A DNA stretch of 64,000 bases from Dehalococcoidia bacterium (lineage in GTDB: Bacteria > Chloroflexota > Dehalococcoidia > Bin125): contig OZ244557.1 of assembly GCA_965217625.1 (NCBI GenBank), positions 1,469,827 to 1,533,826 on the forward strand. Direction: 5' to 3'. Below are positions 1 through 16,095 of this stretch, one piece after another. Position 1 is the stretch's first letter. Every line of letters begins with the position of its first letter. A program made the translations under genes and the position numbers. The notes under the pieces were generated by a model. The model had not been told where the DNA came from, did not search any database, and worked only from the letters and a program-made list of their open reading frames with translations.

Positions 1-609
1 GTGGCGCAGCATGATGCGCAGGTTGGTGGCGCCGATGGTTTGGGCGGCGATGACGTACTCCCGCTCCCGCAGGGCCAGGGTCTCGCCGCGGACGATCCGC
101 GCCCAGGTCGCCCAGAGCCCGAAGACGAGCACGATGACGACGTTGGTCAGACTCGGGCCCCAGATCGCGGCCAGGAAGACGGCCACGAGGATGCCCGGCA
201 GCGCGAGCTGGTAGTCCACCATCGCCCCGATGGCGCGGCCGGTCCAGCCGCCGAACCAGCCGGCCAGCAGGCCCAGGAAGGTCCCGATCAGGGTCGCGAT
301 GGGAATGATGAGCACGATGGCGACCAGGGAGATGCGGGCGCCATGCATCAGGCGGCTGAGGTAGTCACGGCCGAAATGGTCCGTCCCCAGGGGATGATCC
401 CAGCCGCCGCCGTCGAAGACGGGGGGTTGGATCCGCCCGACGAGGTCCTGGGCGTAGGGATCCTGGGGGGCGAGGGCGGGACCGAAGACGCCGAGAAAGA
501 CGAAGCCCAGGAGCATGCCGAGCGTCACCGCGAGCGTCTTGGGCGAGCGCACGTGGAAGCGGCGACGGCGGCTCGGGACCTCGGCCAGGAGGGGGACGTC
601 GACGGCCAC
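1..609 (-). CDS. ABC transporter permease, DppC/OppC-like (N-terminal part; C-terminus runs off the window edge)
   Basis: Reverse-strand translation gives VAVDVPLLAEVPSRRRRFHVRSPKTLAVTLGMLLGFVFLGVFGPALAPQDPYAQDL...DYQLALPGILVAVFLAAIWGPSLTNVVIVLVFGLWATWARIVRGETLALREREYVIAAQTIGA. This is a typical binding-protein-dependent transport permease with an EAA-loop region. GTG start at 609, just downstream of the DppB stop. Confidence 0.75.
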   Translation of the reverse strand, partial: MAVDVPLLAEVPSRRRRFHVRSPKTLAVTLGMLLGFVFLGVFGPALAPQDPYAQDLVGRIQPPVFDGGGWDHPLGTDHFGRDYLSRLMHGARISLVAIVLIIPIATLIGTFLGLLAGWFGGWTGRAIGAMVDYQLALPGILVAVFLAAIWGPSLTNVVIVLVFGLWATWARIVRGETLALREREYVIAAQTIGATNLRIMLRH

Positions 610-612
610 GGC

Positions 613-1548
613 TCAGTTCACTCCCGTCCGGATGCGGGGGTCGAGGAAGGTGTAGGAGACGTCGACCACGAAGTTGACGAAGATGATCCAGGTGGAGGTC
701 ATGATCACGGCCGCCTGCACGACCGGGTAGTCGATCGCCTTGATCGACTGAATGATCAGGAACCCCAGCCCGGGCCAGGCGAAGACCGTCTCCACGATGA
801 CCGAGCCGGAGAGGATGTAGCCGACCTGCAAACCGAGCAGGGTGACGACGGCCAGCATGGAGTTGCGCAGCGCGTGCTTGCGGACGACGACGCGCTCGCG
901 GAGCCCCTTGGCGCGCGCAGTGCGGATGTAGTCCTGCTGCAGCGTGTCCAGCATGGAGGAGCGGGTGAAGCGCATGACCGCGGCGGCCGGGAATGATCCC
1001 AGCGTGATCGCGGGCAGGATGATGCTGGACACGCCCGACCGGCCACCCGTGGGCAAGAAGTCGAAGTTCACCGCCAGGAAGAGGATCAGCATCAGGCCCA
1101 GCCAGAAGTTAGGCACCGCCTGTCCCAGCAGCGCGAACAGCCGCGCGATCACATCGACGCCGCCGCCGCGGCGCACCGCGGCGAGGACGCCCAAGGGGAC
1201 GCCCACGGCGAAGGCGAAGCCGAGCGCCGCGACGCCCAACAGGACGGTGGCGACGATGCGCTCTTTGACCACGGTGGAGGCGGGGACGTGGGCGCGGAAG
1301 GAGGTGCCGAAGTCGAACTGGGCGGTGTCGCTCAGGAAGCGGCCGTACTGCACGATCAGCGGATCGTTCAGGCCGAGCTGGTCCTTGAACTTCTCGATCT
1401 GCTCGGCGGTCGTCTCGATCGGCGCCAGATAGCTGATCGGGTCGCCGGTGGCCCGGCTGAGGATGAAGACGCTCGTCACGACCAGGAACACGACCGCGAC
1501 GCCGCGAATGAACCGCGCGACCGCGGCGTAGGCCAGCTGAGTGTTCAT
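613..1548 (-). CDS. ABC transporter permease, DppB/OppB-like
   Basis: 311-aa ORF with 6 predicted TM segments, the RTARAKGL EAA motif and a C-terminal DPRIR tail. Paralogous to 6488..7423 and 12654..13613. Confidence 0.9.
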   Translation of the reverse strand: MNTQLAYAAVARFIRGVAVVFLVVTSVFILSRATGDPISYLAPIETTAEQIEKFKDQLGLNDPLIVQYGRFLSDTAQFDFGTSFRAHVPASTVVKERIVATVLLGVAALGFAFAVGVPLGVLAAVRRGGGVDVIARLFALLGQAVPNFWLGLMLILFLAVNFDFLPTGGRSGVSSIILPAITLGSFPAAAVMRFTRSSMLDTLQQDYIRTARAKGLRERVVVRKHALRNSMLAVVTLLGLQVGYILSGSVIVETVFAWPGLGFLIIQSIKAIDYPVVQAAVIMTSTWIIFVNFVVDVSYTFLDPRIRTGVN

Positions 1549-1696
1549 CCCGGCGTCGACCCCTCCGGTACTTCGGCCTCACCTAGGCAGCAGGCTAGCG
1601 GCGGCGTGTGGCCCCTGGCAATCGGGGCATCAAACGACCCCCGGGGCCGCCATGTCCATGGCGACCCCGGGGGGACGGTTCACAAGCCGCAGACTC

Positions 1697-3742
1697 CTAG
1701 GTGTTCACCGCGAGGTACCGAGGATTGAGTGACGGGTCCGCGTTGAGCCAGCCCTGGTAGGTAATGTCTTTCCGCGCTCCGTGCTCGTGCGAGAGGTTGA
1801 ACAGCGGGATGTTGTACGCCCCCTCGTAGTGGATCACCGCCGCGTCCCAGTAGATGTCGTCGCGCTTCTGCGGATCGAACTCCTGGTTCCCCTGGTCGAT
1901 CAGCGCCTGGAAGTCCAAGAACCCCGGTATGAAGTCGTCGTCCGCATTCGTGTGCGTGTACGGGTTGTCGATCGCCCCGATCAGGGTCCAGGCGAAGCCG
2001 GCGCCCGCCGGCGACCCGAGCTCCGTCGCCCCGTTCTGACTCATCAGGAAGGGCCAGGGCACCGTGTGGTCGCGAACATCGGCCAGGGCGCCGCCCAAGT
2101 CGATGTAGTCCGTTTCCACGTCGAATCCCACGTCGTTCAGCATCTGCTGGATGGACGGCACCCAGCGTTCCTCGCCCCAGATCCCGGTGGCGATGTGCAA
2201 TCGGAACTGGAAGCCGACCTGGCCCGCCTCCTCGAGCAAGGCGCGCGCCTTATCCGGATCGTAGCCGCGGAGGCCGGAGGGGCCGAGCGGCAAGGGGTAG
2301 CCAGAGGGGAATGGCGAGACGGCCGGCAACTCCAGGCCGGTCAGCAGGTTGTCGATGATCGCCTTCCGGTCGATGGCGTAGTTGGCCGCCTCCCGCACGC
2401 GCTTGTCGCGCCAGGGGTTCGGGCCGCCCGTGATCGGGTCGACGGACGCGTTGAGCGGCAGCTCCAGCCCCATGACGCGCAGGCCCGAAATGGTGAGCAC
2501 GTGGTGGTCGTCCGAATCCGCGAACAGCGCGGCGCCGTCCGGGCCGAGGCGATCGGCGACGTCGATCTCCCCCGCCTCCAGGGCGGCGATACGGGTCGAC
2601 TCCTCCGGGAAGTAGCGGGCGGTGACCGTCTTGGCCCAGTTTCCGTACTTATCGTGCGGGCCGGTGTCGGAGGGGTTGGGCTGGAAGAACCAGTCGTCCC
2701 AGCGCTCGCTGACCATCTCCTGGTCCGGCGTGAAGGAGACGAACGTATACGGGCCCGTGCCGACCGGGTTGCGGGCGAAGAACTCGTCACCGTTGTCCAC
2801 GATGTAGTCCCGAGGCGTCACCGCGGTGTTGGCGCCGCCCAGCTGCTCCGACATGTTGACGCTGGGCGGGTCCATGCCCACGCGAAGCGTGAGGTCGTCC
2901 ACCACCTGCAGGTCGTCGATAAAGGCGATGCGCGCGCGGATACCGCTCACGTAGTCCGGGTTGTACTCGGCGATACCCAGGTTGCGCTCGTAGAACCACT
3001 TCAGGCGCTCGGCGTCCAACGGCTCGCCGTTGTGGAAGGTGACGCCGGGCTGCAGCGTGAGCAGGGCGGCCGTGTTTTGGTCCACGAACTCCCAGTCCGA
3101 GTAGCCGCCGCTCGCTATGAACTGACGGCCCTTGTCCATGGCGAAGATCGGGTCGAAATGCAGGCCGTTGGTGACGGCGGCGCCGCCCTGGTCGGTATTG
3201 TGGTCCAGTGAGGCCGGCCAGGAGGCGTAGCCGATCCGCAGCGGGGCCTCCGTGTCGAAGCGGCTGACCATGGGGGCCGCGTCTTCCTCGTCGGCCATGG
3301 TGGCGGCGTCGGCGGCCTCGCGGGCGGCCTGGGCCGCGTCCTCGGCGGCCGCGGCGGCGGCGGCGGCGGCGTCCGCGGCGGCTTGCGCCTGATCGGCGCC
3401 CGCCTCGCGGGCCGCTTCCGCGGCAGCGGTGGCCGCAGCAGCCGCAGCCTCGGCCACCGCGGCGGCGCCGGCATCCCCGGCGGCGGCAGCCGCAGCGGCA
3501 GCCGCTTCCGCGGCGGCGGCGGCGCGTTCGGCCGCGGCGGCGGCGGCGCTGGAGTCGCCGGCGGCGGCGGCGGCCTCCGCGGCAGCCGCGTCGCCCGCGC
3601 CCCCGTCGTCATCGTCGTCGCCGCCGCAGCCGACCAAGGCCAGCCCGGCGGCGCCAACGCCAGCCTTCGCGCTGGCTCCCAACATCGTGCGACGGCTGAT
3701 CTTGTGGTGTCGCAGTCTCGTCCAATAGTTCGGCGTGCTCAT
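1697..3742 (-). CDS. ABC transporter substrate-binding lipoprotein (family 5, DppA/OppA-like) with a long Ala/Glu-rich linker (SBP1)
   Basis: Start MSTPNYWTRLRHHKISRRTMLGASAKAGVGAAGLALVGCGG is a Tat-like RR motif plus an LVGC lipobox. Then about 150 aa of A/E/D low complexity, followed by an SBP_bac_5-like domain. AGGAAGGAA SD upstream of the ATG at 3742. Confidence 0.85.
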   Translation of the reverse strand: MSTPNYWTRLRHHKISRRTMLGASAKAGVGAAGLALVGCGGDDDDDGGAGDAAAAEAAAAAGDSSAAAAAAERAAAAAEAAAAAAAAAGDAGAAAVAEAAAAAATAAAEAAREAGADQAQAAADAAAAAAAAAEDAAQAAREAADAATMADEEDAAPMVSRFDTEAPLRIGYASWPASLDHNTDQGGAAVTNGLHFDPIFAMDKGRQFIASGGYSDWEFVDQNTAALLTLQPGVTFHNGEPLDAERLKWFYERNLGIAEYNPDYVSGIRARIAFIDDLQVVDDLTLRVGMDPPSVNMSEQLGGANTAVTPRDYIVDNGDEFFARNPVGTGPYTFVSFTPDQEMVSERWDDWFFQPNPSDTGPHDKYGNWAKTVTARYFPEESTRIAALEAGEIDVADRLGPDGAALFADSDDHHVLTISGLRVMGLELPLNASVDPITGGPNPWRDKRVREAANYAIDRKAIIDNLLTGLELPAVSPFPSGYPLPLGPSGLRGYDPDKARALLEEAGQVGFQFRLHIATGIWGEERWVPSIQQMLNDVGFDVETDYIDLGGALADVRDHTVPWPFLMSQNGATELGSPAGAGFAWTLIGAIDNPYTHTNADDDFIPGFLDFQALIDQGNQEFDPQKRDDIYWDAAVIHYEGAYNIPLFNLSHEHGARKDITYQGWLNADPSLNPRYLAVNT

Positions 3743-3908
3743 GGTCAGTTCCTTCCTGAATACCGGCTGTCCCCTTGTGGGACCGCTCGGTGCAAGAGCG
3801 CGGACAGTATGACACATTTTCGGAGAATCGTCCCTGCCCCCCACCCAGAGTGATGTCTCCTAGTGGAGAAGAGCGATCACGGAGGTCGTCGGTGTCGGGC
3901 GCCGGGCC

Positions 3909-5486
3909 CTACGGGCGGACGCCCACCTTGGCCTTCGGGCCCAATTGGCTGCGCACGGCCTCGTAGGCCAGTTCCAGGAAGCGATGCACGTACGACCGCG
4001 TCTGGCGCGGGTCGATGATGTCCTCAATGCCGAAGGCCTCGGCGGTGCGGAACGGGTTGCGGAACTGCAGCAGGTGCGTCTCGATCTCTTTGCGCCGCGC
4101 GTCGGGGTCGGGCGCGGCCTCGATCTCGCGCTTGTAGGCCGCCGCGACGCCGCCCTCTATCGGGATCGAGCCCCAGTCGCCCGCCGGCCAGCCCACGCGG
4201 TAGTTGATCCGGCCGACGTTGGCCGTCGCCTGCCCGGCCATGCCGAAGTTCTTGCGCGTGATCACGGTGAAGACGGGCACCGTGGCGAGATAGGTCGCCC
4301 AGTAGGCGCGCATCCCGTGGCGCAGCGTGCCGGTGCGTTCCGCTTGCGGGCCGAGCATGAAGCCTGGCACGTCGGCCAGAAAGACGATGGGGATGTGGAA
4401 GTGGTCGCACAATTCGACGAAGTGACCCTGTTTGCCGGCCGAGTCGGCCGACATCGCGCCCGCGAGCACGTAGGGGTTGTTGGCGACGATGCCCACGGGG
4501 TAGCCACCGACGCGCGCGAGAAGCGTGTGGACGGAGGCGCCGAACTCCGGCTTGATCTCGAAGAACTCGCCGTCGTCGACGATCAGCTCCACCACCCGCC
4601 GCATGTTGTAGGCCCGCGTCCGCTTCCGTGGGACGATCGAGAGCAACTCCTGCTCTTCGCGATCGGGCGGGTCACTGCTGGGGCGCACCGGCGGCTGCTC
4701 GTAGACGTTGCTCGGCATGTAGGAGAGGAAGGTCTTCATCTGACGCAGCGCGTCCAGCTCGTCACTGGCGCGGTTGTCGAGCGCCCCGGAGGTCCCGATG
4801 TGGATGTCGGGGCCACCGAGCTCCTCCTTCGTCACCTTGTGTCCGAGTGCCCGCTCGACCACCGGCGGACCGGCGGCGAAGAGCGATCCTTCGGGCGTCA
4901 TCACCGTGAAGTGTCCCAACACGGCCGCGGCCGCGGCGCCGCCCGCGGCCGGGCCGGGGACCGAGTAGACCAGCGGCACCTCCTGGCCGGCGAGGATGGC
5001 GTGTCCGAAGGCATCGAACGAGCTCGGCAGATGGCCATGGCCGTCTCCCTCGGCGGCGACGTTGGCGGCCGCGCTCTCGATGAAGTGGATCAGCGGCACC
5101 CGGTACTCCCGCGCCATGTCCTCGAAGAAGTGACTCTTCGAGCGTTCCTGGCCGCTGATGTCGGCGGCCCCCCCGGAGACCGTGAAATCCGACCCCGACA
5201 CCACGACGCGGCGGCCGTCGACCTTGGCCAGCCCGCCCACGTGGGCCACGGGCGTGAAGTCGACGAATTGCCCCTGCTCGTACGTGCCCTGGCCCGCCAG
5301 GCTGCCGACCTCGTGGAAGCTGCCGGGGTCGGCGATCGCGTCGATGCGCTCCCGGATCGTCAGCTTCCCCCGTGCGTGCTGCCGGGCGACGCGTTCCTCA
5401 CCGCCGAGCTTGAGCGCCAGGCGGCGGCGCATATTGAGTTCATCGACCTCGGGCTGCCAGTCGCGGGGCTGCTGCGGTTGGGGCAT
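3909..5486 (-). CDS. Acyl-CoA carboxylase carboxyltransferase (beta) subunit, PccB/AccD-like (CT1)
   Basis: Carboxyl_trans family. Diagnostic segments VDELNMRRRLALKLGGEERVARQHARGKLTIRERIDAI and PGFMLGPQAERTGTLRHG. Start at MPQPQQPRDW (5486). Confidence 0.85.
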   Translation of the reverse strand: MPQPQQPRDWQPEVDELNMRRRLALKLGGEERVARQHARGKLTIRERIDAIADPGSFHEVGSLAGQGTYEQGQFVDFTPVAHVGGLAKVDGRRVVVSGSDFTVSGGAADISGQERSKSHFFEDMAREYRVPLIHFIESAAANVAAEGDGHGHLPSSFDAFGHAILAGQEVPLVYSVPGPAAGGAAAAAVLGHFTVMTPEGSLFAAGPPVVERALGHKVTKEELGGPDIHIGTSGALDNRASDELDALRQMKTFLSYMPSNVYEQPPVRPSSDPPDREEQELLSIVPRKRTRAYNMRRVVELIVDDGEFFEIKPEFGASVHTLLARVGGYPVGIVANNPYVLAGAMSADSAGKQGHFVELCDHFHIPIVFLADVPGFMLGPQAERTGTLRHGMRAYWATYLATVPVFTVITRKNFGMAGQATANVGRINYRVGWPAGDWGSIPIEGGVAAAYKREIEAAPDPDARRKEIETHLLQFRNPFRTAEAFGIEDIIDPRQTRSYVHRFLELAYEAVRSQLGPKAKVGVRP

Positions 5487-5600
5487 CGGGGGCTCGTTTC
5501 GATCATGCGTCGGGCGGGGTGGGATCATCCGTGCCGGCGCCGTACCCGCCGGGCCGGGGCCCATCCGATGCTACACACGGGAGCGCTGTGGGCGCACGAC

Positions 5601-6491
5601 TCAGCGCGAGCGGCGCAGGCGCGGATCGAGGAAGTCGCGCAGCCAGTCGCCCATCAGGTTGGCGACCAGCGCCAGGATGACGATCGCCAAGCCCGGGATG
5701 CCGACGAGCCAGAACTTGATCGAGAGCAGATCGCGTCCCTCGGCCACCATGGAGCCCCAGGAGGGCGTGCCGATCTCGGCGCCCACGCCCAGGAAGCTGA
5801 GCGACGCCTCGGCGATGATCACCGTGGCCAGCTGCAGCGTCGCCAGGACGATGATCGAGTTGACGAGGTTGGGCAGCACGTGGCTGCCGAGGATGCGATA
5901 CGCGGGGGCGCCGATGGTTCTGGCGGCGAGGATGTAGTCGCGCTCGCGCAGGGAGATCGTTTCCGCCCGCACGAGGCGGGCGAAGGGGGCCCAGAGGAAG
6001 ATCGTGAGGATGATGATCACGTTGCGCAGGCTGGGGCCGGTGATCGCGGCGAGCAAGACGGCGGCGAGGATGGCGGGAAAAGCGAGCTGCACGTCGACGA
6101 CGCGCATGATTCCGCGGTCGACCAGGCCCAGTCGCCAGCCGGCGAGCAGTCCCAACAGGGTTCCCAGGAGGACCGCCGCGGGGATCACGATCGCGACGAC
6201 CTTCATGGAGATGCGGGCGCCGTGGATCACGCGCGAGAACTGGTCGCGTCCCAGGGCGTCGGTGCCGAAGACGTGATTCCAATCGCCCGTCTGCCAGATG
6301 GGCCCGTGCAGCCGCTCGACGAGGTCCTGCCGGTCCGGATCGTGCGGCGAGATGACATCGGCGAAGATGCCGGCGAAGATCACGACGCCGATCACGAGCA
6401 GGTAGACGCTGAGCGTGCGCCAGCCGCGCGGCAGCCCTCGTCCTGCAGAGCGGAACTCGACGGCCCCCGCCCCCGGGCCGGCGGCGCTCAT
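5601..6491 (-). CDS. ABC transporter permease, DppC/OppC-like
   Basis: Permease with FGTDALGRDQFSRVIHGARIS and an EAA-loop region. ATGA overlap with the upstream DppB stop at 6488. Confidence 0.85.
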   Translation of the reverse strand: MSAAGPGAGAVEFRSAGRGLPRGWRTLSVYLLVIGVVIFAGIFADVISPHDPDRQDLVERLHGPIWQTGDWNHVFGTDALGRDQFSRVIHGARISMKVVAIVIPAAVLLGTLLGLLAGWRLGLVDRGIMRVVDVQLAFPAILAAVLLAAITGPSLRNVIIILTIFLWAPFARLVRAETISLRERDYILAARTIGAPAYRILGSHVLPNLVNSIIVLATLQLATVIIAEASLSFLGVGAEIGTPSWGSMVAEGRDLLSIKFWLVGIPGLAIVILALVANLMGDWLRDFLDPRLRRSR

Positions 6492-7423
6492 ACGACGCCC
6501 TCGCGCACGCGCGGATCCAGGTAGGTGTAGCTGAAGTCCACGATCACGTTGGCGATGATCACCCAGGTCGCCGTCACGACCACCGCCGCCTGGACCACCG
6601 GGAAGTCGGCGCCGCGGACGGACGACCAGATGAGCAAGCCGACGCCGGGCCAAGCGAAGACGGTCTCGATGATGATGGAGCCGGCGATCAGGTCGCCCAC
6701 GTACAGCCCCAGGATCGTGATCACCGGGAAGAGCGCGTTGCGCAGCGCGTGCCGGCGGATGACGGTGAGCTCGCGCAAGCCCTTGGCGCGCGCGGTGCGG
6801 ATGTAGTCGCTGTCGAGCACCTCCAGCATCGCGGAGCGAGTCAGGCGGACCATGCCGGCGGCGAAGAACGAGCCCAGCGTGACCGCCGGCATGATCAGGC
6901 TGCGGAAGTCCCCCTTGCCGCCGGTGGGCAGCAAGCCCAGCTCGACGGAAAAGAGGAAGATCAGCAGCAGCCCTTGCCAGAAGCTGGGCGTCGCTTGCCC
7001 GATCAGCGCGAACAACCGCCCGATCAGGTCAATCGCGCTGCCGCGTTTGATCGCGGCCAGCACGCCGATGGGCACACCCACCCCGACGGCGAAGATGAGC
7101 GCCGCGGCGGCGAGCTGCAGCGTGTTCCCGATCCGGCGGCCAACATCGTCCATCGCCGGCTGGGCGCTGCGGTGCGAGACGCCGAAGTCGAGCTGCACGG
7201 CGTTCCAGAGGAAGCGCCCGTAGCGCTCCATGATCGGGTCGTTGAGTCCCAGCCGCTCTTTGATCTCCTCGATGCCCTCGGAGGTCGCCGTGATGTCGGC
7301 GAGCAGGAAGGCCGGGTCGCCGATGGCCCGGCTCATGAAGAAGACCAGCGTGAGGACGGTGAAGAGGACGAGGATGGAGGCGAGCAGCCGCAAGGCAAGC
7401 AGCCGCAGCAGGTTTTCCCTCAT
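6488..7423 (-). CDS. ABC transporter permease, DppB/OppB-like
   Basis: 311 aa, paralog of 613..1548 (same architecture, RTARAKGLRE motif). Confidence 0.9.
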   Translation of the reverse strand: MRENLLRLLALRLLASILVLFTVLTLVFFMSRAIGDPAFLLADITATSEGIEEIKERLGLNDPIMERYGRFLWNAVQLDFGVSHRSAQPAMDDVGRRIGNTLQLAAAALIFAVGVGVPIGVLAAIKRGSAIDLIGRLFALIGQATPSFWQGLLLIFLFSVELGLLPTGGKGDFRSLIMPAVTLGSFFAAGMVRLTRSAMLEVLDSDYIRTARAKGLRELTVIRRHALRNALFPVITILGLYVGDLIAGSIIIETVFAWPGVGLLIWSSVRGADFPVVQAAVVVTATWVIIANVIVDFSYTYLDPRVREGVV

Positions 7424-7534
7424 CGTATCCTCGGCAGGGGCATCCTCAACGGGGATGTCGTGCGGGCGGCGCCCCTCCCGTTGCGGAGAGGGGGCGCCGC
7501 CCGCGTCAGGAAGCGATCAGATCGCCGACTCGCG

Positions 7535-9559
7535 CTAGACGTTCCGCTGGCGAAGGTTCCACACCTCGACGGTTGAGGGCAGGTTCGCGAACTGCGGCCA
7601 CTCCAGGTTGCCGGCCGCGACGGTTGGTTGGACGAGCTCGAAGAGGTAGATCCAGGAGGCCTGATCGTAGTGCAGGTGGGCGCCCTCGTTCAGGAGCGCA
7701 TTCTGTTTGTCCTGATCGAACTCTGCCTCGGCCTCGTCGTAGAGGGCCTCGATCTCTTCGAAGATGGGGTCCGAGAGCTCTTCGATCCGGTGCGAGAAGA
7801 CCGCGGGCGTTCGCGACGACTCGAGGACGGCGATCAGTGGGTGGTTGCCGGCCGACTGCGGCATCAGGAACGGCACGTCGGTCTTCTTCTCGCGCAGGTC
7901 GGAGAAGTACTGGGAGATCTCCTGGGTGCGAATCTCGGCCCGGATGCCGACCTCTCGCAGCATCCCCCCCACGGCCTGGAAGAACGTATCGGAGTTGGTG
8001 TAGAGGCCCGCTGGGTAGCGGATCTCGGTGTCGAAGCCGTCGCCCCAGCCGGCTTCTTCCAAGAGCGCCCGGGCGCGGTCCGGGTCGTAGCCCCAGTCCT
8101 TGTCCGCGAGGGGGCCCTGCGGGCCGTCGTTCCCGCCCTGGTCGACCGCGAGCGTGTAGGTGTGGAACTCTTGGCCCGTCATGATCTCGTTGATGATCAA
8201 GTCGACGTCGACGGCCAGGTTGGCGGCGATGCGGACCCGCCGGTCCCGCCAGGGGTTGGGGCCGCCGCCGACCGCGTTCTCCAGCAGGTGCTGCGGCAGC
8301 TGGAGGTGCAGGCCGCGCTGCGCGCGGTGGAACCAGACGACGAAGTCGTCGTCGGCTTCGAAGGGCTCGGCCAGGTCCGGGGCGATCCGGAGGGCGACGT
8401 CGATCTCGCCGGCCTCCAGGGCGAACAGCCGCGCCTGTGCCTCCGGGATGTTCGTGGCCGTCGCGTTCTTGATGTAGGGAAGCCGCTTTTCATGCGCGAA
8501 GTCGCGGCTGTTGAGGAAGTCGTCGTTGCGGGTGCTGCGGATCTCCTGGTCCGCCTCCCAGGAGAGGAACTTGAAGGCCCCGAAGCCGACGGGGTGCTGC
8601 GCGACCCCGTCGGGGCCCTGCTCCTCGGCGTGGCGTCTCGACATCATCGGCAGGCGCGTGAGAATGCTGGGGGCGCCCGAACTCGGCGGGTCCATCGCGA
8701 CCCTCGCGGTGAACTCGTCCTCGATCCTGGGCTCGCCGAAGGTCGCGAAGTCGGCCGCGCGCCCCACGAAGTTCGGGTCGCCGGCCCAACGCCCGCCCGT
8801 CCGTTCGAGGTTGAATTTGAACTCTTCGGCGGTGACGGGATCGCCGTTATGGTACATCACGCCCTGTCGGAACGTGAACAGGATGTTCGCGTTGGCGTCG
8901 ACGAACTCCCAGTCCGAGGCGCCCCCCTGCCCGGCGGAGCCATCCGCCGTACGGGCAACGGGGTTATCGAAGTGGCAGTGAATGTTGAAGGCGCTGTGTC
9001 CCCCGAACCCCGCCTGGGCCTGGGGATCGAGCGTGGACGAGAAGACGTCGTAGCCGAGCACGAGACTCGCGTCGAGGTTGTAGTCGCCGGCGGGCGCCAT
9101 CTCTTCGTCGCCCGCGGTGGCGGCGTCGGCGGCCTCGCGGGCGGCCTGGGCCGCGTCCTCGGCGGCGGCAGCGGCGGCAGCGGCGGCCTCCGCGGCCGCT
9201 TGCGCCTGGTCGGCGCCAGCCTCGCGGGCCGCTTCCGCGGCGGCGGTGGCCGCAGCAGCCGCAGCCTCGGCGACCGCGGCGGCGCCGGCATCCCCGGCGG
9301 CGGCAGCCGCAGCGGCAGCCGCTTCCGCGGCCGCGGCCGCGCGTTCGGCCGCCGCGGCGGCGGCGCTCGAGTCGCCGGCGGCGGCCGCGGCCTCCGCAGC
9401 GGCGGCGTCGCCCGCGCCCCCGTCGTCATCGTCGTCCCCGCCACAGCCGACCAAGGCCAGCCCGGCGGCGCCAACGCCGGCCTTGGCGCTGGCTCCCAAC
9501 ATCGTGCGACGGCTGATCTTGTGGTGTCGCAGGCTCGTCCAGTAGTTCGGCACGCTCAT
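7535..9559 (-). CDS. ABC transporter substrate-binding lipoprotein with Ala/Glu-rich linker (SBP2)
   Basis: The first ~160 aa are near-identical to SBP1 (MSVPNYWTSLRHHKISRRTMLGASAKAGVGAAGLALVGCGG plus A/E linker). The mature SBP_bac_5-like domain is divergent. Confidence 0.85.
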   Translation of the reverse strand: MSVPNYWTSLRHHKISRRTMLGASAKAGVGAAGLALVGCGGDDDDDGGAGDAAAAEAAAAAGDSSAAAAAAERAAAAAEAAAAAAAAAGDAGAAAVAEAAAAAATAAAEAAREAGADQAQAAAEAAAAAAAAAEDAAQAAREAADAATAGDEEMAPAGDYNLDASLVLGYDVFSSTLDPQAQAGFGGHSAFNIHCHFDNPVARTADGSAGQGGASDWEFVDANANILFTFRQGVMYHNGDPVTAEEFKFNLERTGGRWAGDPNFVGRAADFATFGEPRIEDEFTARVAMDPPSSGAPSILTRLPMMSRRHAEEQGPDGVAQHPVGFGAFKFLSWEADQEIRSTRNDDFLNSRDFAHEKRLPYIKNATATNIPEAQARLFALEAGEIDVALRIAPDLAEPFEADDDFVVWFHRAQRGLHLQLPQHLLENAVGGGPNPWRDRRVRIAANLAVDVDLIINEIMTGQEFHTYTLAVDQGGNDGPQGPLADKDWGYDPDRARALLEEAGWGDGFDTEIRYPAGLYTNSDTFFQAVGGMLREVGIRAEIRTQEISQYFSDLREKKTDVPFLMPQSAGNHPLIAVLESSRTPAVFSHRIEELSDPIFEEIEALYDEAEAEFDQDKQNALLNEGAHLHYDQASWIYLFELVQPTVAAGNLEWPQFANLPSTVEVWNLRQRNV

Positions 9560-9627
9560 GACTGAATCCTTTCGCGGGCGTATGCAGTCGTCGCCCGGGC
9601 GGGCGGCTCATCGTTCAAGGCCAGCGA

Positions 9628-9657
9628 ATCGTAATCCTGGGAACGCTATGGTGTCAA
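9628..9657 (-). promoter_or_regulatory. Candidate sigma70-type promoter for the SBP2 cassette
   Basis: On the gene strand: TTGACA, 18-nt spacer, TACGAT (TAnnnT), about 95 nt upstream of the SBP2 ATG. The same module is conserved upstream of SBP3. Confidence 0.35.
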
Positions 9658-9716
9658 CAAGGCCCGCCGATCAGGGAAGCGGCACGCGAATGGACGCGCG
9701 ACCGCCTCGCCCGGCC

Positions 9717-11543
9717 TCACGGCTCCTGCGTGTAGCCGTCTTCCCCCTCGCGGATGACGATGGTGGCGTTCGCGGGGACGTCCTCCAGCACGGTGCGGGT
9801 TCCGCCGGCGGGCCAGATGACCGTGACCCGCGCGACCAGCGGCGGATCCGCGGCCCCGGCGCCTATCCCGCTGCCTAGTCCGAAGTGCAGCGTCGACTCG
9901 CTTTGGCCGAGGAAGTGCGTCGCGACGCCGGCCTCCCGCAGCTGCACGCCGGCGCCGGCCTCCACCTCCACCTCGACGCGCGCGCCGATCGCGTCCCGGT
10001 TCGAGGCCGAGCCGATCAGGCGCAGGCGCAGCCAGGCGAGCTGATTCCCCCCATCGTTGCGGTACAGCGTGGGTTGGCCGGCGTTGTTGACGACGAACAC
10101 GTCGAGGTCCCCGTCGCGGTCGTAGTCGAAGGTCAGCAAGCCCTTGCCCGCGGCCGTGGAGACGATGCCGGCGTCGGCGGACCGCTCGGCCATGCGTCCC
10201 GTGCCGTCGTTCTCCCAGAGGCGCATGGGGTCGTCGTTGAAGACCACCTCGTGCTCCGTGAGCACGAAGCCGTTGGTCATGATCAGGTCCGGGTCGCCGT
10301 CGTTGTCGGCGTCGAAGAAGGCGGCCCCCCAGCCCCAGTAGCCGTCGCGCACGTCGGCGGCGTCCGTCTGGTCGGAGAAGCGCCGGCCGCCCTCGTAGGC
10401 GAAGAGGCGGTTGCCGGAGGGGCGCCAGTCGCACATCCCGGTGAGATACGACTCGCCCCCCAGGCAAGGGAACGAGCTCGCGATGGCGGTCACGAACCAG
10501 TCCAGATCGCCGTCCCCATCGACGTCGCCGAAGGTCGAGCCCATGCCGTTCTCGTCCGTGCCGACGCCCGCCGCGACGGTGCCGTCGCTGAACGTGCCGT
10601 CGCCGTTGTTCCAGAACAGGCGCGAGCGGCCGTAGTCGCCCGCGACGGCCAGGTCCGGCCAGCCGTCGGCGTCCAGATCGACGAAGGCGGTGCCGAAAGA
10701 GAAGGCGCCGTCGAAGCCCGAGTCCGTCAGCGATTCGGCATCGGCCATGGAGACCCCGGCGGCGGCGGTCACGTCCTCGAAGAAGCCGGGCTGCTCCGCG
10801 CCCAAGTTGCGCAGCAGGCGCGCGTGCGCGGGCGCGGGCGCGGGCGCGTCGCGCTCGATGTACTGGGCCAGGCGCCACTCCGTGGTATGGATGTCCAGCC
10901 AGCCGTCGCGATCGAAGTCCCCCATGGCGACGCTCATGCCGGCGCGGGGCGCGTCGTCCGCGACGGCGGCGCCCCGCGCCACGGCCTCCTCCCGGAACGC
11001 ACCGTCGCCGTCGTTGATGTAGAGGAGGAAGCGCGGCGCCGCGATCGTGGTGACGAACAGATCCTGGTCGCCGTCGTTGTCGATGTCGCCCCACCATGCC
11101 CCGTTGGTCGGATAGGAGATCGTCGCCAGCCCGGCGGCCTCCGTCACGTCGGCGAAGGTCCCGTCGCCCTGGTTGCGGAAGAGGAGGCCGGGGCCGTCCA
11201 GCCGGGTGACATAGAGGTCGATCCAGCCGTCGCCGTCGTAGTCGGCGGCGGCGGCGCCGCCGGTGGCTCGCTCGACCAGGCAGCCGGTCGCGCCGGGCGG
11301 GTAGCCGGCGAAGATGCAGTCGGGCGTGGCCCGGAACTCGTGCTGGACATAGGAGAGGCCGGACTCCGCCGTGACGTCGGTGAACAGCAAGCGGGGTGGC
11401 GGCGGCTCGTCCGCCCCGCCGCAGGCCGTGGTCAGCAGCGCGGCGGCGACGCCGCCCAGCGCCCACGCCCCACAGCCGCGAACGATTGACCGCGCCCGCC
11501 AGACAAGCGCGGCACGGCGGACGGAGGGGTGGGGGAGCGGCAT
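9717..11543 (-). CDS. CRTAC1-family protein (FG-GAP/VCBS beta-propeller repeats plus a C-terminal ASPIC/UnbV domain), lipoprotein
   Basis: Multiple DxDxDGxxD repeats (DYDGDGWIDLYVT, GDIDNDGDQDLFVT, FDADNDGDPDLIMTNG). C-terminal RLRLIGSASNRDAIGARVEVEV. LLTTACGG lipobox after a signal sequence. Start uncertain (11543 or 11720). Confidence 0.75.
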   Translation of the reverse strand: MPLPHPSVRRAALVWRARSIVRGCGAWALGGVAAALLTTACGGADEPPPPRLLFTDVTAESGLSYVQHEFRATPDCIFAGYPPGATGCLVERATGGAAAADYDGDGWIDLYVTRLDGPGLLFRNQGDGTFADVTEAAGLATISYPTNGAWWGDIDNDGDQDLFVTTIAAPRFLLYINDGDGAFREEAVARGAAVADDAPRAGMSVAMGDFDRDGWLDIHTTEWRLAQYIERDAPAPAPAHARLLRNLGAEQPGFFEDVTAAAGVSMADAESLTDSGFDGAFSFGTAFVDLDADGWPDLAVAGDYGRSRLFWNNGDGTFSDGTVAAGVGTDENGMGSTFGDVDGDGDLDWFVTAIASSFPCLGGESYLTGMCDWRPSGNRLFAYEGGRRFSDQTDAADVRDGYWGWGAAFFDADNDGDPDLIMTNGFVLTEHEVVFNDDPMRLWENDGTGRMAERSADAGIVSTAAGKGLLTFDYDRDGDLDVFVVNNAGQPTLYRNDGGNQLAWLRLRLIGSASNRDAIGARVEVEVEAGAGVQLREAGVATHFLGQSESTLHFGLGSGIGAGAADPPLVARVTVIWPAGGTRTVLEDVPANATIVIREGEDGYTQEP

Positions 11544-11727
11544 TGGGGGGGCCCTCAGGGTCGCCAGGAGGGGCCGGCCGTGGGCCCGAGCTGCGTCCGG
11601 AGAACCGGCTGGGCCAGCTCGCAGCGCCGGTGGATCTCGTCGACCTCGGGTTGCCGGATCATCGAGTTGCCTTTCAGCGCGCCGGGAGTGGGCGGTGCGC
11701 GTCAGGGCAGGAGCATACAAGCGGGGC

Positions 11728-12657
11728 TCAGCGGATATTCCGCAGGCGCGGATCGAAGGCGTCCCGCATGCCGTCGCCGACGAAGTTGAACGACATCACG
11801 AGCAGGATGATGGCGATCGCAGGCGCGACGAGCGGCCAAGTGCCCCGCGTCAGCATGGTCTGGTAGCCCTGCGACACCATCCCGCCCCAGGCGGGCGTGG
11901 GCGGCTGCACCCCGGCGCCGATGAAGCTGAGCCCGGCCTCGATGAGGATGATGCCCGCCGCCGAGAGCGAGGCCAGCACCATGACCGGCGCGACGACGTT
12001 GGGCAGCATGTGCCGCCCCATGATGCGTGCCGGGGGCGCGCCGATCGCCCGCGCGGCATCGACATAGACCTCCTGTTTGATCGAGAGCACGATGCCGCGC
12101 GTGAGCCTCGCGTAGCCCGGTGACCAGACCACGCCAACGATGATCATCGTGTTCGTCAAGCTGGGCCCCGTGGCGCCGACAACGGCGAGGATGAGGATCA
12201 ACCCCGGCATCGCCATGACCGCGTCGACGAAGCGCATGATCACCAACTCGTCCAGCTTGCCGCCCACATACCCGGCCAGGAGTCCCAGCGGCACCCCGGA
12301 CCCCACCGCGATGCCGATCGCGACGATCACGATCTGCCAGGCGATCCGCGTGCCGAAGATCGTGCGGCTCAAGACGTCGCGGCCGAGCCGGTCGGTGCCG
12401 GCGATGTGATCCCAACTGGGGCTGTTGAAGACCGCCTCGCGCGTCTGTTCCGTCTGCAGCGGATCCGCCGGGGCGATCAGCGGGGCGAAGGCCGCCACGA
12501 TTCCGAAGCCGATCAACAGCACGCCCCCCGCGACCGCCGGCCGGTTGCGGAGATAGACGCGCAAGATCGCCCGAAGCTCCCGGACCCAAGCCCGCTCCCG
12601 CAGGCCGGACGTGGAGAACAGCGGCAGCGCTGTCGGGGGCGCCGTGCCGTCGCTCAT
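11728..12657 (-). CDS. ABC transporter permease, DppC/OppC-like
   Basis: Permease with GTDRLGRDVLSRTIFGTRIA and an EAA region. ATGA overlap with the DppB3 stop. Confidence 0.85.
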   Translation of the reverse strand: MSDGTAPPTALPLFSTSGLRERAWVRELRAILRVYLRNRPAVAGGVLLIGFGIVAAFAPLIAPADPLQTEQTREAVFNSPSWDHIAGTDRLGRDVLSRTIFGTRIAWQIVIVAIGIAVGSGVPLGLLAGYVGGKLDELVIMRFVDAVMAMPGLILILAVVGATGPSLTNTMIIVGVVWSPGYARLTRGIVLSIKQEVYVDAARAIGAPPARIMGRHMLPNVVAPVMVLASLSAAGIILIEAGLSFIGAGVQPPTPAWGGMVSQGYQTMLTRGTWPLVAPAIAIILLVMSFNFVGDGMRDAFDPRLRNIR

Positions 12658-13613
12658 AACGCCTCCCGGCCGGCGCGGATGCGCGGATCAAGCAGCGGAT
12701 ACGAGAGATCGACGATCAGATTCACGGCCACCACGCAGACGGCGAAGAACATCACCACGTTCTGGATGATCGCGAAGTCTTGATTGACCACCACGCTCTC
12801 CACGAACCAGCGGCCCATGCCCGGGATGGCGAAGACGTTCTCCGTGATCACCGCGCCGCTGAAGATCAGCCCGACCTGGAAGCCGAAGACAGTGATCACC
12901 GGGATCATCGCGTTGCGCAGCCCGTGCCGGATGATCACGGTCCGCCCTTGCAGCCCCTTGGCGCGGGCCGTGCGGATGTAGTCGTCGTTGAGCACGTTGA
13001 TCATCGCCGATCGTGTCTGCCGCATCAGCAGCGTCGTCGCGGCCAGGGAGATCGCGAGGACGGGCATCGCCATGCTCTTGAGGTTCTCGATGGGGTCTTC
13101 GCCGATCGAGACGTACCCGCCGACCGGGAGCAGATCCAACTCGAGCCCGAGCACCAGGATCAGCGCGATGCCGGTGAGGAACTCGGGGATCGAGTTCCCC
13201 ACGATCATGGTCGTGCTGGCCGCGACCTCGCGCTTGGAGCCGGGCTTCAGCGCCGCCAGCACGCCGATCGGAATGGCCACGACGAGGACCAGCAGGAGGC
13301 TCAGGACGCCCAACTCGATCGTCGCGGGCAGCCGCCGGGCGAACTGGTCCGTGATCGACTCCTGATTGATCAGGCTCAAACCCAGATCGCCCTGCAGCAG
13401 GTTGAACAGCCAGCGGAAGTAGCGCTGCATGAGCGGATCGTTGAGGTGCAGGCGATCGCGGATGGCGGCCAGCGACTCCGGGGTCGATTCGATGCCCCCG
13501 ATGCCGAAGGAGGGATCCCCCGGCAGCAGGTTCATCAACAGAAAGGAGACGAGGCTGACGATCCACAGGATCACGAGCGAGGAGAGGACGCGGGTGGCGA
13601 TGTAGCGGGACAT
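12654..13613 (-). CDS. ABC transporter permease, DppB/OppB-like
   Basis: 319 aa, RTARAKGLQGR motif, paralog of the two DppB-like genes above. Confidence 0.9.
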   Translation of the reverse strand: MSRYIATRVLSSLVILWIVSLVSFLLMNLLPGDPSFGIGGIESTPESLAAIRDRLHLNDPLMQRYFRWLFNLLQGDLGLSLINQESITDQFARRLPATIELGVLSLLLVLVVAIPIGVLAALKPGSKREVAASTTMIVGNSIPEFLTGIALILVLGLELDLLPVGGYVSIGEDPIENLKSMAMPVLAISLAATTLLMRQTRSAMINVLNDDYIRTARAKGLQGRTVIIRHGLRNAMIPVITVFGFQVGLIFSGAVITENVFAIPGMGRWFVESVVVNQDFAIIQNVVMFFAVCVVAVNLIVDLSYPLLDPRIRAGREAL

Positions 13614-13752
13614 CCGTCTTCGCTCGAATCACGCGGGCGCCGAACTGGCGGGCCCGCGACGCCCGATCCCAGGCCGCCGTTCGGCCGCAGCCGAGGACAA
13701 CCGCCGTGACCCCCGGCGGCGCACGCGCCGCCGGGGGTCCGGTTTCCCGGTC

Positions 13753-15999
13753 CTAGGTATTGATCCAGAGGCCCTTGTAGCCGTCGCCGTCGACATCGCC
13801 ATCGACAGGTCGCAGCCGGAACGCCCCGATGTTGCCCTGGGCGGCGAGGCCGGCCGGATACTGAACCCAGTTATACGTCCAGGAGTGGCCCTCGACATCG
13901 GCGCTGCCGTCGCCGTAGCTGGCGAAGAGCCGGTCGTACGGCGCCAGGCGATCCTCCTGCGCGGCGAAGCTCGCCGCCACGTTGAGAAGGTCCTCGGTCT
14001 CCGCGAGCCCCTGCAGCACCTCGTCGTTGGGGTAGTCCGCCAGGCTGGCGCGTCCCGTGCCGGGACCCTCCGCCGGCGAGCCGTACATCCAGCCCTTGAG
14101 GAGAAGTTCCATGGTGGGGCGCATCGTGACGTCCGGGTCGAAGGGCGACTCCCAACTGAGGCAAGCCGTGATGAAGTCGCCGGCCTGGAAGAAGCGGTCG
14201 AGCACGACCGACTCCGAGGCGTCGAAGTACTCGAGGTCCCAGCCGCGTTCCAGCAACTGATTGAAGACCGGCTGAGCCGAGCGGCGGTGGAAGTCCGTGC
14301 CGAAACCCAGGAAGACGCCACTGACCGGGTTGCCGTCGCCGAAGCCGGCGGCGTCCCGCAGCTGCTGGGCCGCTTGGAAGTCGGGCGGGTCGTAGTAGTT
14401 GGCCCCGGGCTGAATCGCCCAGCTCTCGGTGCTGGTGTTGCAGACCGACGCCTTGCCGCGTCCGTCGAAGGCCACGGCGTTGACCGCTTCCCGATCAACG
14501 CTGAGGTTGAGGGCCTTGCGCAGGCGGGGGTCGCGGAACATGTTGAATCCCTCAGCCGCCGGGTTCAGGTTGAACCACTCGCCCATCCAGGTTTGCCAAA
14601 TGCCCAGGCCCACCTGGAAGCCGTCGGCCTCCAGATCCGCCTGGAGGTCCGTCGTCATGCCGCCGGGGGGCTCGGCGTAACTGACCTCCCCATCCAAGAA
14701 CGCCGCCCACCTCCCTTGGGCGTCCGGACGGATGAGGATATCGAGTTCGTCCGCGTAGACGCGCTCATTGTCCCAGTAGCCGTCCCATTTCTCGCCCAGC
14801 CAGCGCTCACCATCCTGGTACTCGACGACCCGAGCGGGACCCGCGCCCACGGGATCGGTGATCGCCGTCTCGAAATGCGCCGGCGAGATCAGCATCCCGG
14901 CGCCCGGGTTGCCGTAGAAGCCCACGATGGTCGGCCCGAAGGGCTGCTCTTTCACCATGCGCCATGAGAGCTCATCGACGGCCTCGAACTGCGAGTTCGC
15001 GATCGCCGTCTGGGCGCGGCTGTTGCCCGCGGCGTCGGGGTCGGACTGCACGTACTCCATGTTGAGTTGCATGGCATTCGCGTCGACCGGCGCACCATCC
15101 TGGAACCGCGCGCGGCCCGCCGCGAAGTTGAAGATGTACGTCGTTTCGTTCGGAATCTCCCACGAATCGGCGAGCTCCGGCTGCACGCGGCCGTTGTCGT
15201 CGTAGCCCAAGACGGAGTCGTAGATGTACTTCAGGAAGCCGCCGTGGTCCGCGCCCGTCAGGGAGATGAAGGGGTTCCAGCCGCCGTCGATGCCGAAATC
15301 TCGCGTGCGGACGATCGTTCCGCCGTACACCGGCGCGCCGGCCGCGGCCGGCTCGTCCTCCTCGTCGGCCATGGTGGCGGCGGCGGCGGCCTCGCGGGCC
15401 GCGTCGGCAGCCTCTTCCGCCGCCGCGACGGCGGCGGCGGCGGTCTCGGCGGCCGCCGCGGACGCCTCTCCGGCGGCCGCCGCAGCGGCAGCCGCGGCAT
15501 CGGCCGCGGCCTGGGCGGCGGCAGCGGCAGCGGCGGTGTCCTCGGCGCCGGCTTCCCGCGCGGCGGCGGCGGCGGCTTCCGCTGCATCCGCAGCCGCCTG
15601 CGCGACGGCAGCGGCGCCCGCGTCGCCCGCGGCCCGGGCGGCCTCGGCCGCATCGGCGGCGGCATCGGCGGCGGCCTGGGCCGCAGCGGCGGCCTGTTCG
15701 GCGTCATCCGACTCCGCCGCTTCGGCCGCCAGGGCGGAGGCCGCCTCGGCGGCTTCGGCGGCGCGGCCCGCGGCATCGGCGGCGGCGCTCGCGGCCTCCG
15801 CCGCGGCAGCGGCGTCGCCCGCCGCCGCGTCGATCGCCGACGTATCGACGGCGGCCGGCGCGGCGTCATCGTCGTCGTCGCCGCAGCCGACGAGCGCGAG
15901 CCCGGCGGCCCCAACGCCGGCCTTGGCGCTGGCTCCCAACATCGTGCGGCGCGAGATCTTTCGCTGTCGCAGGGTGGTCCAATAGTTCGGTGTGCTCAT
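13753..15999 (-). CDS. ABC transporter substrate-binding lipoprotein with an extended (~200 aa) Ala/Glu/Asp-rich linker (SBP3)
   Basis: MSTPNYWTTLRQRKISRRTMLGASAKAGVGAAGLALVGCG plus a long A/E/D low-complexity region, then an SBP_bac_5-like domain. AAAGGA SD before the ATG at 15999. Confidence 0.8.
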   Translation of the reverse strand: MSTPNYWTTLRQRKISRRTMLGASAKAGVGAAGLALVGCGDDDDDAAPAAVDTSAIDAAAGDAAAAAEAASAAADAAGRAAEAAEAASALAAEAAESDDAEQAAAAAQAAADAAADAAEAARAAGDAGAAAVAQAAADAAEAAAAAAREAGAEDTAAAAAAAQAAADAAAAAAAAAGEASAAAAETAAAAVAAAEEAADAAREAAAAATMADEEDEPAAAGAPVYGGTIVRTRDFGIDGGWNPFISLTGADHGGFLKYIYDSVLGYDDNGRVQPELADSWEIPNETTYIFNFAAGRARFQDGAPVDANAMQLNMEYVQSDPDAAGNSRAQTAIANSQFEAVDELSWRMVKEQPFGPTIVGFYGNPGAGMLISPAHFETAITDPVGAGPARVVEYQDGERWLGEKWDGYWDNERVYADELDILIRPDAQGRWAAFLDGEVSYAEPPGGMTTDLQADLEADGFQVGLGIWQTWMGEWFNLNPAAEGFNMFRDPRLRKALNLSVDREAVNAVAFDGRGKASVCNTSTESWAIQPGANYYDPPDFQAAQQLRDAAGFGDGNPVSGVFLGFGTDFHRRSAQPVFNQLLERGWDLEYFDASESVVLDRFFQAGDFITACLSWESPFDPDVTMRPTMELLLKGWMYGSPAEGPGTGRASLADYPNDEVLQGLAETEDLLNVAASFAAQEDRLAPYDRLFASYGDGSADVEGHSWTYNWVQYPAGLAAQGNIGAFRLRPVDGDVDGDGYKGLWINT

Positions 16000-16066
16000 C
16001 ACGTGTCCTTTCGCAAACACATAGGGCCGTCGTCCCCACGGACGGCTCGACCATCAAGGCGCGGGG

Positions 16067-16095
16067 AGTCTAGCCCCGGGCATAGGGCCTGTCAA
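16067..16095 (-). promoter_or_regulatory. Candidate sigma70-type promoter for the SBP3 cassette
   Basis: Gene strand: TTGACA, 17 nt, TAGACT. Homologous in position and sequence to the SBP2 upstream module. Confidence 0.35.

Follow-up and report, generated by a model that had tools for sequence, protein, structure and literature searches.

Apparent gene conversion of a shared leader-linker cassette among solute-binding protein genes of a Dehalococcoidia bacterium

The subject of this study is a 64,000-nt stretch of contig OZ244557.1 (assembly GCA_965217625.1, Dehalococcoidia bacterium, Bin125), referred to below as the window, position 1 of which is contig position 1,469,827. It carries three genes for predicted solute-binding proteins (SBPs) of ATP-binding cassette (ABC) importers, all on the minus strand. 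Two of them, SBP1 (1697..3742, 681 aa) and SBP2 (7535..9559, 674 aa), begin with a nearly identical cassette that encodes a putative export leader followed by a long, alanine-rich linker that we call type C, and each then continues into an SBP_bac_5 domain. The third, SBP3 (13753..15999, 748 aa), joins a leader of the SBP1/SBP2 type to a different, type-B linker of ~183 aa and its own SBP_bac_5 domain. From the pattern of differences among these genes and their relatives in other assemblies, we are highly confident that the cassette has undergone gene conversion between paralogs. We further consider it probable that the cassette is an exchangeable membrane-anchor and spacer module of a lineage-specific lipoprotein family, the copies of which are homogenised by interlocus gene conversion.

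The repeat and its exchange between paralogs

The SBP1 copy of the repeat (3299-3742) and the SBP2 copy (9116-9559) align without gaps over 444 nt, corresponding to codons 1-148 of both minus-strand genes, with 419 identical positions (94.4%) and 25 differences. A preliminary description of this DNA had placed the repeat at 3300-3742 and 9117-9559 with an identity of about 93-95%, within 1 nt of what the alignment gives, and the elements it had listed, an RR-motif leader, an LVGC lipobox, a tract of five aspartates (D5) and a low-complexity spacer rich in Ala, Glu and Asp, are all found in both copies. Nearly all of the differences (23/25) fall at third codon positions, and only three amino acids change (T3V, R9S and D124E). 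The identity stops exactly at the ATG, upstream of which the two genes match at 45-52%, and it falls to 45-70% from about codon 149 on. When linkers are compared out of register, or when unrelated Ala-rich linkers are compared, the DNA match in these data is only 60-73%, and the repeat is thus no illusion of composition.

In rates of substitution, too, the linkers are far closer than the mature domains. By the NG86 method, nonsynonymous divergence (dN) between SBP1 and SBP2 is 0.005 and synonymous divergence (dS) 0.20 in the linker, as compared with 0.70 and 0.85, respectively, in the mature domain. The GC content of third codon positions (GC3) is similar in the leader, linker and mature parts (0.83-0.93), thus giving no compositional sign of a foreign origin. 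The two copies are direct repeats 5817 nt apart and share exact runs of 59, 51 and 47 nt, the longest of which lies inside 3402-3514. As had been noted earlier, SBP3 has a longer and more divergent version: its leader is ~87% identical in DNA to those of SBP1 and SBP2 (87-94% among all three genes), but its 183-aa linker is different. Upstream of the genes, the SBP1 region is unrelated to the others, and those of SBP2 and SBP3 are only about 80% alike.

Beyond the cassette, the binding domains had been taken to be unrelated and to diverge completely, a view that does not stand. All three match PF00496 (SBP_bac_5) well above its cut-off of 32.4 bits (189 bits for SBP1, 171 for SBP2 and 125 for SBP3), and the mature domains of SBP1 and SBP2 are 35% identical over ~499 aa (E 7e-68). 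This homology was revealed by an unmasked search, whereas composition-adjusted BLASTP of SBP1 against SBP2 returned the 43-aa leader only. No NCBIfam equivalog reaches its cut-off for SBP1-SBP3, and an exact-sequence database look-up of SBP2 gave no match.

Evidence for recent exchange comes from comparing the locus between strains. A contig of the public metagenome assembly ERZ25067264, from a sister strain (L117), is 98.9% identical to window positions 544-9986 over 9443 nt, with 102 mismatches. The two modules account for 888 nt of this alignment and for 47 of the 102 mismatches (binomial p 8e-22), leaving 55 in the other 8555 nt (~0.64%). Within SBP2, 39 of the 41 differences between the strains lie in the first 444 nt of the gene, and all seven changes that distinguish the protein P0027 from SBP2 are in the module, with none in the other 526 residues. 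A discrete tract could be mapped to nt 229-341 of the SBP2 gene (9219..9331, minus strand), the SBP1 counterpart of which (3402..3514, minus strand) carries donor-type sequence. Over these 113 nt, SBP2 of the window differs from SBP1 of the window at 2 positions and from SBP2 of the sister strain at 18; the sister-strain SBP2, for its part, differs at 7 positions from the SBP2 ortholog of another species (L113, metagenome-assembled genome (MAG) CBDHGH). We therefore infer that SBP1-type sequence has replaced what SBP2 formerly had in this block.

A similar picture emerges from two further assemblies that carry the syntenic locus, L113 and the contig ERZ25068966 (L114). Across 560 codons of leader and mature domain their SBP1 orthologs show no difference, yet 8 synonymous sites in the linker differ (Fisher p 1.5e-4); these are grouped around nt 170-228 and carry variants of the SBP2 type. 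For SBP2, the L114 and L113 orthologs have a dS of 0.21 in the mature domain and 0.54 in the linker, while the window and L114 have 0.67 in the mature domain and 0.16 in the linker. Two paralogs from a single genome (L016 and L018) have modules that are 95% identical and mature domains that are 25% identical, and tables of variable sites reveal mosaics of shared synonymous variants among all copies. The ortholog L111, at low coverage (3x), was left out of the rate estimates. Its mature-domain differences are spread evenly across codon positions, which suggests sequence errors, and its mosaic module pattern was later borne out by better contigs.

The 3' junction of the cassette (..AREAAxAATMADEED) is a likely 3' homology anchor for the exchange and is identical at 44 of 46 nt between SBP1 (3280..3325, minus strand) and SBP3 (15354..15399, minus strand). 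The marks expected of interlocus gene conversion, namely a high-identity tract with sharp borders, incongruence between module and flanks, and a concentration of close-strain differences in the segment, are thus all found here. Recent gene conversion or modular exchange between the paralogs had been proposed from the repeat alone, and the strain comparison, the mapped tract, the incongruence of orthologs and paralogs and the mosaic synonymous variants now bear it out.

The putative anchor and its linker

The shared segment encodes MS.PNYWT.LRHHKISRRTMLGASAKAGVGAAGLALVGC-GG-DDDDD and then a linker of 102 residues. In SBP1 the leader takes up codons 1-46 (3605..3742, minus strand), with an NYW..R n-region, an SRRTML twin-arginine-like motif, an h-region, the LVGC lipobox and GG-D5, and the type-C Ala/Glu/Asp-rich linker takes up codons 47-148 (3299..3604, minus strand). 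The corresponding modules are at 9116..9559 in SBP2 (codons 1-148, leader and type-C linker) and at 15352..15999 in SBP3 (leader and type-B linker), both on the minus strand. The lipobox L-V-G-C occupies residues 36-39 after AGVGAAGLA, is preceded by an n-region with R/K/H, and is invariant in 34 aligned homologs. It is canonical for a bacterial lipoprotein precursor, in which [LVI][ASTVI][GAS]C ends the h-region after a positive n-region, and the cassette proteins are thus predicted to be lipidated at its cysteine. Upstream of it is S-R-R-T-M-L-G, of which R17 and R18 are invariant in the same 34 homologs and positions +5 and +7 are off the consensus for twin-arginine translocation (Tat), (S/T)-R-R-x-F-L-K; the motif may direct export by the Tat route. 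The n-region before the arginine pair is itself conserved across the lineage as M-S/T-E-R-N-Y-W-x-R-M-R-R-x-R-M/L-S-R-R (leader open reading frames (ORFs) L001-L110). Signal peptides are not usually conserved in this way, and a dedicated recognition step, for example by a chaperone or targeting factor, may lie behind it.

DNA encoding GVGAAGLALVGCG was found in at least 110 stretches. Among the matches listed, all are from Dehalococcoidia/Chloroflexota MAGs, with up to eight or more copies per genome; that of 'Chloroflexi bacterium TK10-74A' comes nearest, with a DNA identity of 86%. The module is otherwise rare, matching only 482 of 1.84 billion cluster representatives at E<=1e-3. A Pfam scan of 70 of the longer matches identified 54 SBP_bac_5, 4 Peripla_BP_4 and 2 NMT1 domains together with one esterase and one LTD protein, and this variety of attached domains suggests that exported lipoproteins of this lineage use the cassette as a generic front end. 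A literature search on Ala-rich lipoprotein or SBP linkers and on the transporters of TK10 sponge Chloroflexi found nothing.

Linker composition varies considerably over this range. The 102-aa linker of SBP1 and SBP2 is ~60% Ala and ~20% Asp plus Glu, with a net charge of -12. In 115 leader ORFs, the linkers have a median length of 72 aa and a maximum of 247 (range ~40-250), their composition is A 35%, Q 27%, D 11%, E 9%, K+R 1% and P 2%, and their Ala content rises with GC (rho 0.65). Pfam and NCBIfam searches with the linker alone returned no family, and weak NCBIfam matches to the low-complexity regions of DnaX and GltJ were set aside. Long antisense ORFs run over the linkers (3383-3853, 9117-9545 and 15224-15985, plus strand). 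Because the reverse complement of (GCN)n is again (GCN)n, with the wobble at the same nucleotide, such Ala-rich antisense ORFs arise automatically; they also tolerate the observed third-position changes, and most likely they are no genes. Database copies of the cassette are often truncated or frameshifted within the GC-rich linker, with Arg/Pro-rich nonsense translations (P0001, P0005, P0009, P0011, P0015, L068, L110 and others); in metagenomes, assembly or gene calling seems to go wrong often within the cassette.

Despite its low complexity, the linker is, judging from the alignments, under stronger amino-acid constraint than the binding domain. Between the window and the L113 ortholog, the SBP1 linker shows 0/103 amino-acid changes at a dS of 0.19, and the mature domain shows 15% amino-acid change at a dS of 0.17. 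At least three types of long Ala-rich linker (labeled A, B and C here) occur in the high-GC subclade, and each keeps 85-98% identity across species, although the binding domains that bear it share only 21-35%. Landmarks with conserved Gly, Asp, Ser and Arg residues (GDSS, ER, GDAG, REAGADQ, ED and REA) vary little or not at all among 13 sequences. Linker length, on the other hand, is not kept among orthologs: the 183-aa linker of SBP3 compares with 40 aa, of an E/Q type, in the 88%-identical ortholog L109, and the 117-aa type-C linker of SBP1 with a type-B linker of 168 aa in the ortholog L092. A tether of specific length is thus unlikely.

The linker had also been proposed to be an extended helical tether that projects the binding domain away from the membrane through a thick wall. 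The helical part of this proposal is partly borne out. AlphaFold2, given a 34-sequence alignment, places helices at residues 51-61, 64-87, 91-113 and 116-150 with a predicted local distance difference test score (pLDDT) of 54-83, and the pLDDT of residues 40-50, the poly-Asp tract, is <50. The helices are broken at conserved Gly residues, however, and the confidence is only moderate. Modeled alone, the module yields three helices with a pLDDT of 63 and a predicted template modeling score (pTM) of 0.38, and Foldseek found no match for this model in the Protein Data Bank (PDB) at E<=0.001. A profile search of PDB sequences gave weak compositional matches to de novo designed helical proteins only (best E 3e-4), which is consistent with a helix-forming composition and not with homology. 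A helical conformation of the linker is thus suggested by prediction; if helical throughout, its roughly 100 residues would span about 15 nm. A coiled coil or an amphipathic single helix finds no support, no polar/apolar periodicity of 3.5-3.67 residues being found over shuffles. As for the wall, the nearest genomes are Dehalococcoidia/Chloroflexota MAGs, and SAR202/Dehalococcoidia genomes have been described as devoid of peptidoglycan synthesis and their envelope as monoderm, with an S-layer-like layer (PMC10444878, PMC6306507). With published relatives of this kind, a thick wall is not a likely reason for the stalk, and that part of the proposal was dropped.

Taken together, these observations suggest the following model. 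The cassette would encode an RR/LVGC export signal, a poly-Asp tract immediately after the lipidated cysteine and a long acidic linker that, being poor in Lys, Arg and Pro and favorable to helix formation, may hold the solute-binding domain away from the membrane; we are moderately confident of this role as a spacer. SBP1-SBP3 are old paralogs (35% identity or less) within a tandemly triplicated ABC-importer unit, and their front ends are probably kept alike by repeated non-reciprocal homologous recombination among the cassette copies of the genome, with exchange anchored 5' by the conserved leader and 3' by the '..AREAAxAATMADEED' junction. According to this view, conversion would transfer short patches and whole linkers alike, so that orthologs can bear different linker types and strains differ mainly in the module. 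Purifying selection would nearly fix the amino acids of each linker type, while wobble positions drift and get shuffled.

Several points weigh against this model or parts of it. Because 25 differences between SBP1 and SBP2 remain, neither gene need have been the other's direct source; the likely donors are further type-C copies that lie beyond the window in the same genome. All comparison sequences are metagenome assemblies, some of them at 3-18x long-read coverage. With regard to export, the match to the Tat profile PF10518 reaches 8.7 of the 22.7 bits required (E 2.5), and NCBIfam gives no Tat match (TIGR01409) at E<=1. With regard to the linker, AlphaFold confidence is moderate to low, and in a Fourier test of acidic, non-Ala and Gly positions the 3.6-, 7- and 11-residue peaks are below the 95th percentile of shuffles. 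Slippage or out-of-register conversion in GCN runs alters only wobble bases and inflates linker dS; the low dN/dS is thus exaggerated, although the absence of amino-acid change is not explained in this way. Finally, a passive spacer does not explain the near-absolute amino-acid conservation within a linker type, and, conversely, a role that depended on a particular length or sequence is difficult to square with linkers that are freely exchanged between orthologs (40 versus 183 aa).

The near-absolute conservation is what gives some weight to an alternative that we regard as possible but rather unlikely, namely that the Ala-rich modules are a sequence-specific envelope element, with helices that, for example, associate side by side between lipoproteins or dock to an S-layer. 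Selection would then favor identity among copies, and gene conversion would be the means of keeping them compatible. Such a role would account for the absence of change in the 103 linker residues where the binding domain changed by 15%, for the identity of three linker types across species on divergent SBP domains, for the near-invariant Gly, Asp, Ser and Arg landmarks and for the predicted helix breaks falling exactly at the Gly landmarks, and an S-layer-like layer is present in related Dehalococcoidia that lack peptidoglycan. It is difficult to reconcile, however, with orthologs that swap to quite different linkers, with a wider lineage in which linkers are Q/E-rich and Ala tracks GC, with the lack of 3.6-, 7- or 11-residue periodicity over shuffles, and with a low pTM, no structural match and no known partner. 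A still more tentative extension, to which we give slightly less credence, is that in Dehalococcoidia with an S-layer and no peptidoglycan the linkers are helical stalks of dozens of abundant lipoproteins, matched to each other or to a common envelope partner, such that selection for identity would lie behind their concerted evolution as well as the near absence of amino-acid change. An ordered or brush-like compartment beneath the S-layer might in that case substitute for a periplasm.

Other explanations and known systems

The remaining alternatives fare less well than the anchor-and-spacer module with gene conversion. One is that the direct repeats are substrates for programmed or frequent deletion, duplication or promoter swapping, and so act as a copy-number or expression switch. 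A 444-nt direct repeat with exact runs of up to 59 nt would be suited to this, and the locus itself appears to stem from unequal recombination, being a tandem triplication with relics of deleted genes. We nevertheless find a switch improbable, since the gene order FG-GAP-SBP2-permease-permease-carboxyltransferase-SBP1-permease-permease is intact in three other, related assemblies, no junction variant was seen, and the locus has no invertase or recombinase genes and no phase-variable tracts. A phase- or antigen-variable lipoprotein family was likewise rejected: the identity stops at the ATG, SBP2 and SBP3 have separate promoters, and the locus has neither a recombinase nor an invertible repeat.

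It is also very unlikely that there was no recent exchange at all, with an ancient module fused long ago to each SBP and kept similar by purifying selection alone. Although the very high amino-acid conservation across species would agree with such a history, the module dS of 0.20 between SBP1 and SBP2 is far below the saturated 0.85 found outside it, most differences between near-identical strains are in the modules, and the relationships of modules and mature domains are incongruent. Least likely of all is an artefact, whether because any (GCN)n-rich tracts would resemble one another, given the high baseline identity of poly-Ala DNA, in which only one codon position in three can vary, or because assembly or polishing collapsed paralogous low-complexity regions, several comparison contigs being at low coverage (3-18x): the baseline of 60-73% is well short of 94.4% ungapped with every non-Ala residue in register, both genes and their modules recur in independent assemblies (P0027 and P0040, with 14 member sequences each; L113, L114 and L117), and a 23/25 bias to third positions is unlike errors.

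Aspects of this system are familiar from elsewhere. Gene conversion between bacterial paralogs, as in tufA/tufB and rRNA operons, produces high-identity tracts with sharp borders and mosaic variants. The cassette resembles these cases in its apparent non-reciprocal recombination, its sharp-bordered identity tracts and its mosaic variants, but conversion here is limited to one gene module with many dispersed copies on non-orthologous genes, and it includes the replacement of whole linkers by others of different length. The vsp/vlp/vsa families of Mycoplasma and the vlp/vsp families of relapsing-fever Borrelia have near-identical signal-peptide/lipobox 5' ends, divergent mature regions and frequent recombination. 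They also share a 5' untranslated region or promoter, and site-specific inversion or expression-site switching serves antigenic variation. In contrast, the SBP genes have promoters of their own, and their mature products are conserved transport proteins.

The lipoprotein and ST-linker SBPs of Gram-positive bacteria and archaea have short linkers. Like the N-terminal linkers of lipoproteins in general, the cassette linker is a low-complexity segment right after the cysteine of the lipid anchor, here a predicted one, and before the folded domain, on the SBPs of a probable monoderm. Those linkers are roughly 10-30 aa, however, whereas cassette linkers are 100-250 aa, are made of Ala/Glu/Asp or Gln/Glu, favor helices and are poor in Pro, Ser and Thr. 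In E. coli, a disordered linker follows Cys+1 in about half of the outer-membrane lipoproteins (bioRxiv 10.1101/2021.01.05.425367); the cassette linker is instead predicted to be helical and is near-invariant across paralogs and species, and Lol sorting would be irrelevant in a monoderm. A further parallel is the tandem lipoprotein-like (lpl) cluster of S. aureus, in which a conserved intragenic segment is a site of homologous recombination (Tsuru & Kobayashi 2008, PMC2568036). There, too, recombination at a conserved segment of tandem paralogous lipoprotein genes shuffles the flanks and leaves incongruent phylogenies within one ORF, but the segment is central and not 5', the exchanged unit spans two adjacent ORFs, and the products are host-interaction lipoproteins, not ABC binding proteins, with no long low-complexity stalk (PMC2568036). 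A further difference from both lipoprotein linkers and lpl is that the cassette is common to dozens of transport proteins.

Dehalococcoidia of this kind carry many family-5 transporters, and family-5 binding proteins topped the bacterial functions detected in a sponge metaproteome (K02035, 140 proteins; PMC6081418). How a wall-less monoderm keeps and positions its binding proteins is poorly understood. If our interpretation is correct, the locus is a clear natural example of concerted evolution restricted to a module, in which genes that are not orthologs pass a cassette of 0.4-0.7 kb among themselves and strains with 99% identity elsewhere differ in it. The locus also indicates that a low-complexity segment with 60% alanine can be more constrained than a ligand-binding domain, against the usual view of freely evolving linkers. 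On the practical side, the cassettes are dispersed repeats of at least 90% identity that are likely to break or chimerise short-read MAG assemblies and to mislead orthology calls based on N-terminal similarity.

The locus and neighboring genes

Window positions 1-18000 hold, on the minus strand, a tandem triplication of a unit made up of a carboxyltransferase gene (PF01039), a gene for an FG-GAP/ASPIC protein, an SBP gene and two permease genes. An acyl-CoA carboxyltransferase-like gene thus accompanies each peptide/opine-type importer. Traces of deleted genes remain in it. The last ~30 nt of an FG-GAP gene and its downstream promoter region persist as a relic at 16040-16190, between the third carboxyltransferase gene and SBP3, and ~100 nt of a carboxyltransferase 3' end are left at 11520-11640, upstream of an FG-GAP gene. 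Each SBP gene is followed by two BPD_transp_1 permease genes (PF00528, 106-157 bits for five permease ORFs). Those of the SBP2 unit are at 5601..7423 (minus strand), with paralogous pairs at <616-1548 and 11728-13613, and the DNA identity between units is ~70%. No ABC ATPase gene was found in the three importer cassettes (window 613-1548, 5601-7423 and 11728-13613), which hold only an SBP and two permeases each, so that the ATPases must be encoded elsewhere or shared.

The start of SBP1 was taken to be the ATG at 3742, with AGGAAGGAA 7 nt upstream, in preference to a GTG at 3844. Sigma-70-like promoters lie 5' of SBP2 (TTGACA-18-TACGAT; 9628..9657, minus strand), outside the converted module, and 5' of SBP3 (TTGACA-17-TAGACT; 16067..16095, minus strand). 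The two are homologous to each other, yet separate.

Two other proteins of the window have an acidic, Ala/Asp-rich spacer before a C-terminal LPNTG anchor, which fits a general design of an acidic spacer beside an anchor. These paralogous secreted proteins, encoded at 31125-33647 (840 aa) and 36423-38111 (562 aa) on the minus strand, have a weak match to DUF4114 and carry 8-residue QDTQNPPP/EDTQDPPP repeats (24-nt repeats in the DNA) or TP repeats. Their C-termini consist of the spacer, LPNTGSGG, a hydrophobic stretch and RRSRP or RRTRA, the layout of a sortase-type sorting signal, and such signals appear here though the lineage is reported to lack peptidoglycan. Finally, a 992-aa protein is encoded at 19909-22887 on the plus strand, with 13-residue A/E/P-rich repeats at its N-terminus, then leucine-rich repeats and a large C-terminal region. 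The N-terminal repeats correspond to 39-nt repeats in the DNA at 19952-20521, and a minus-strand ORF that runs over them is probably spurious.

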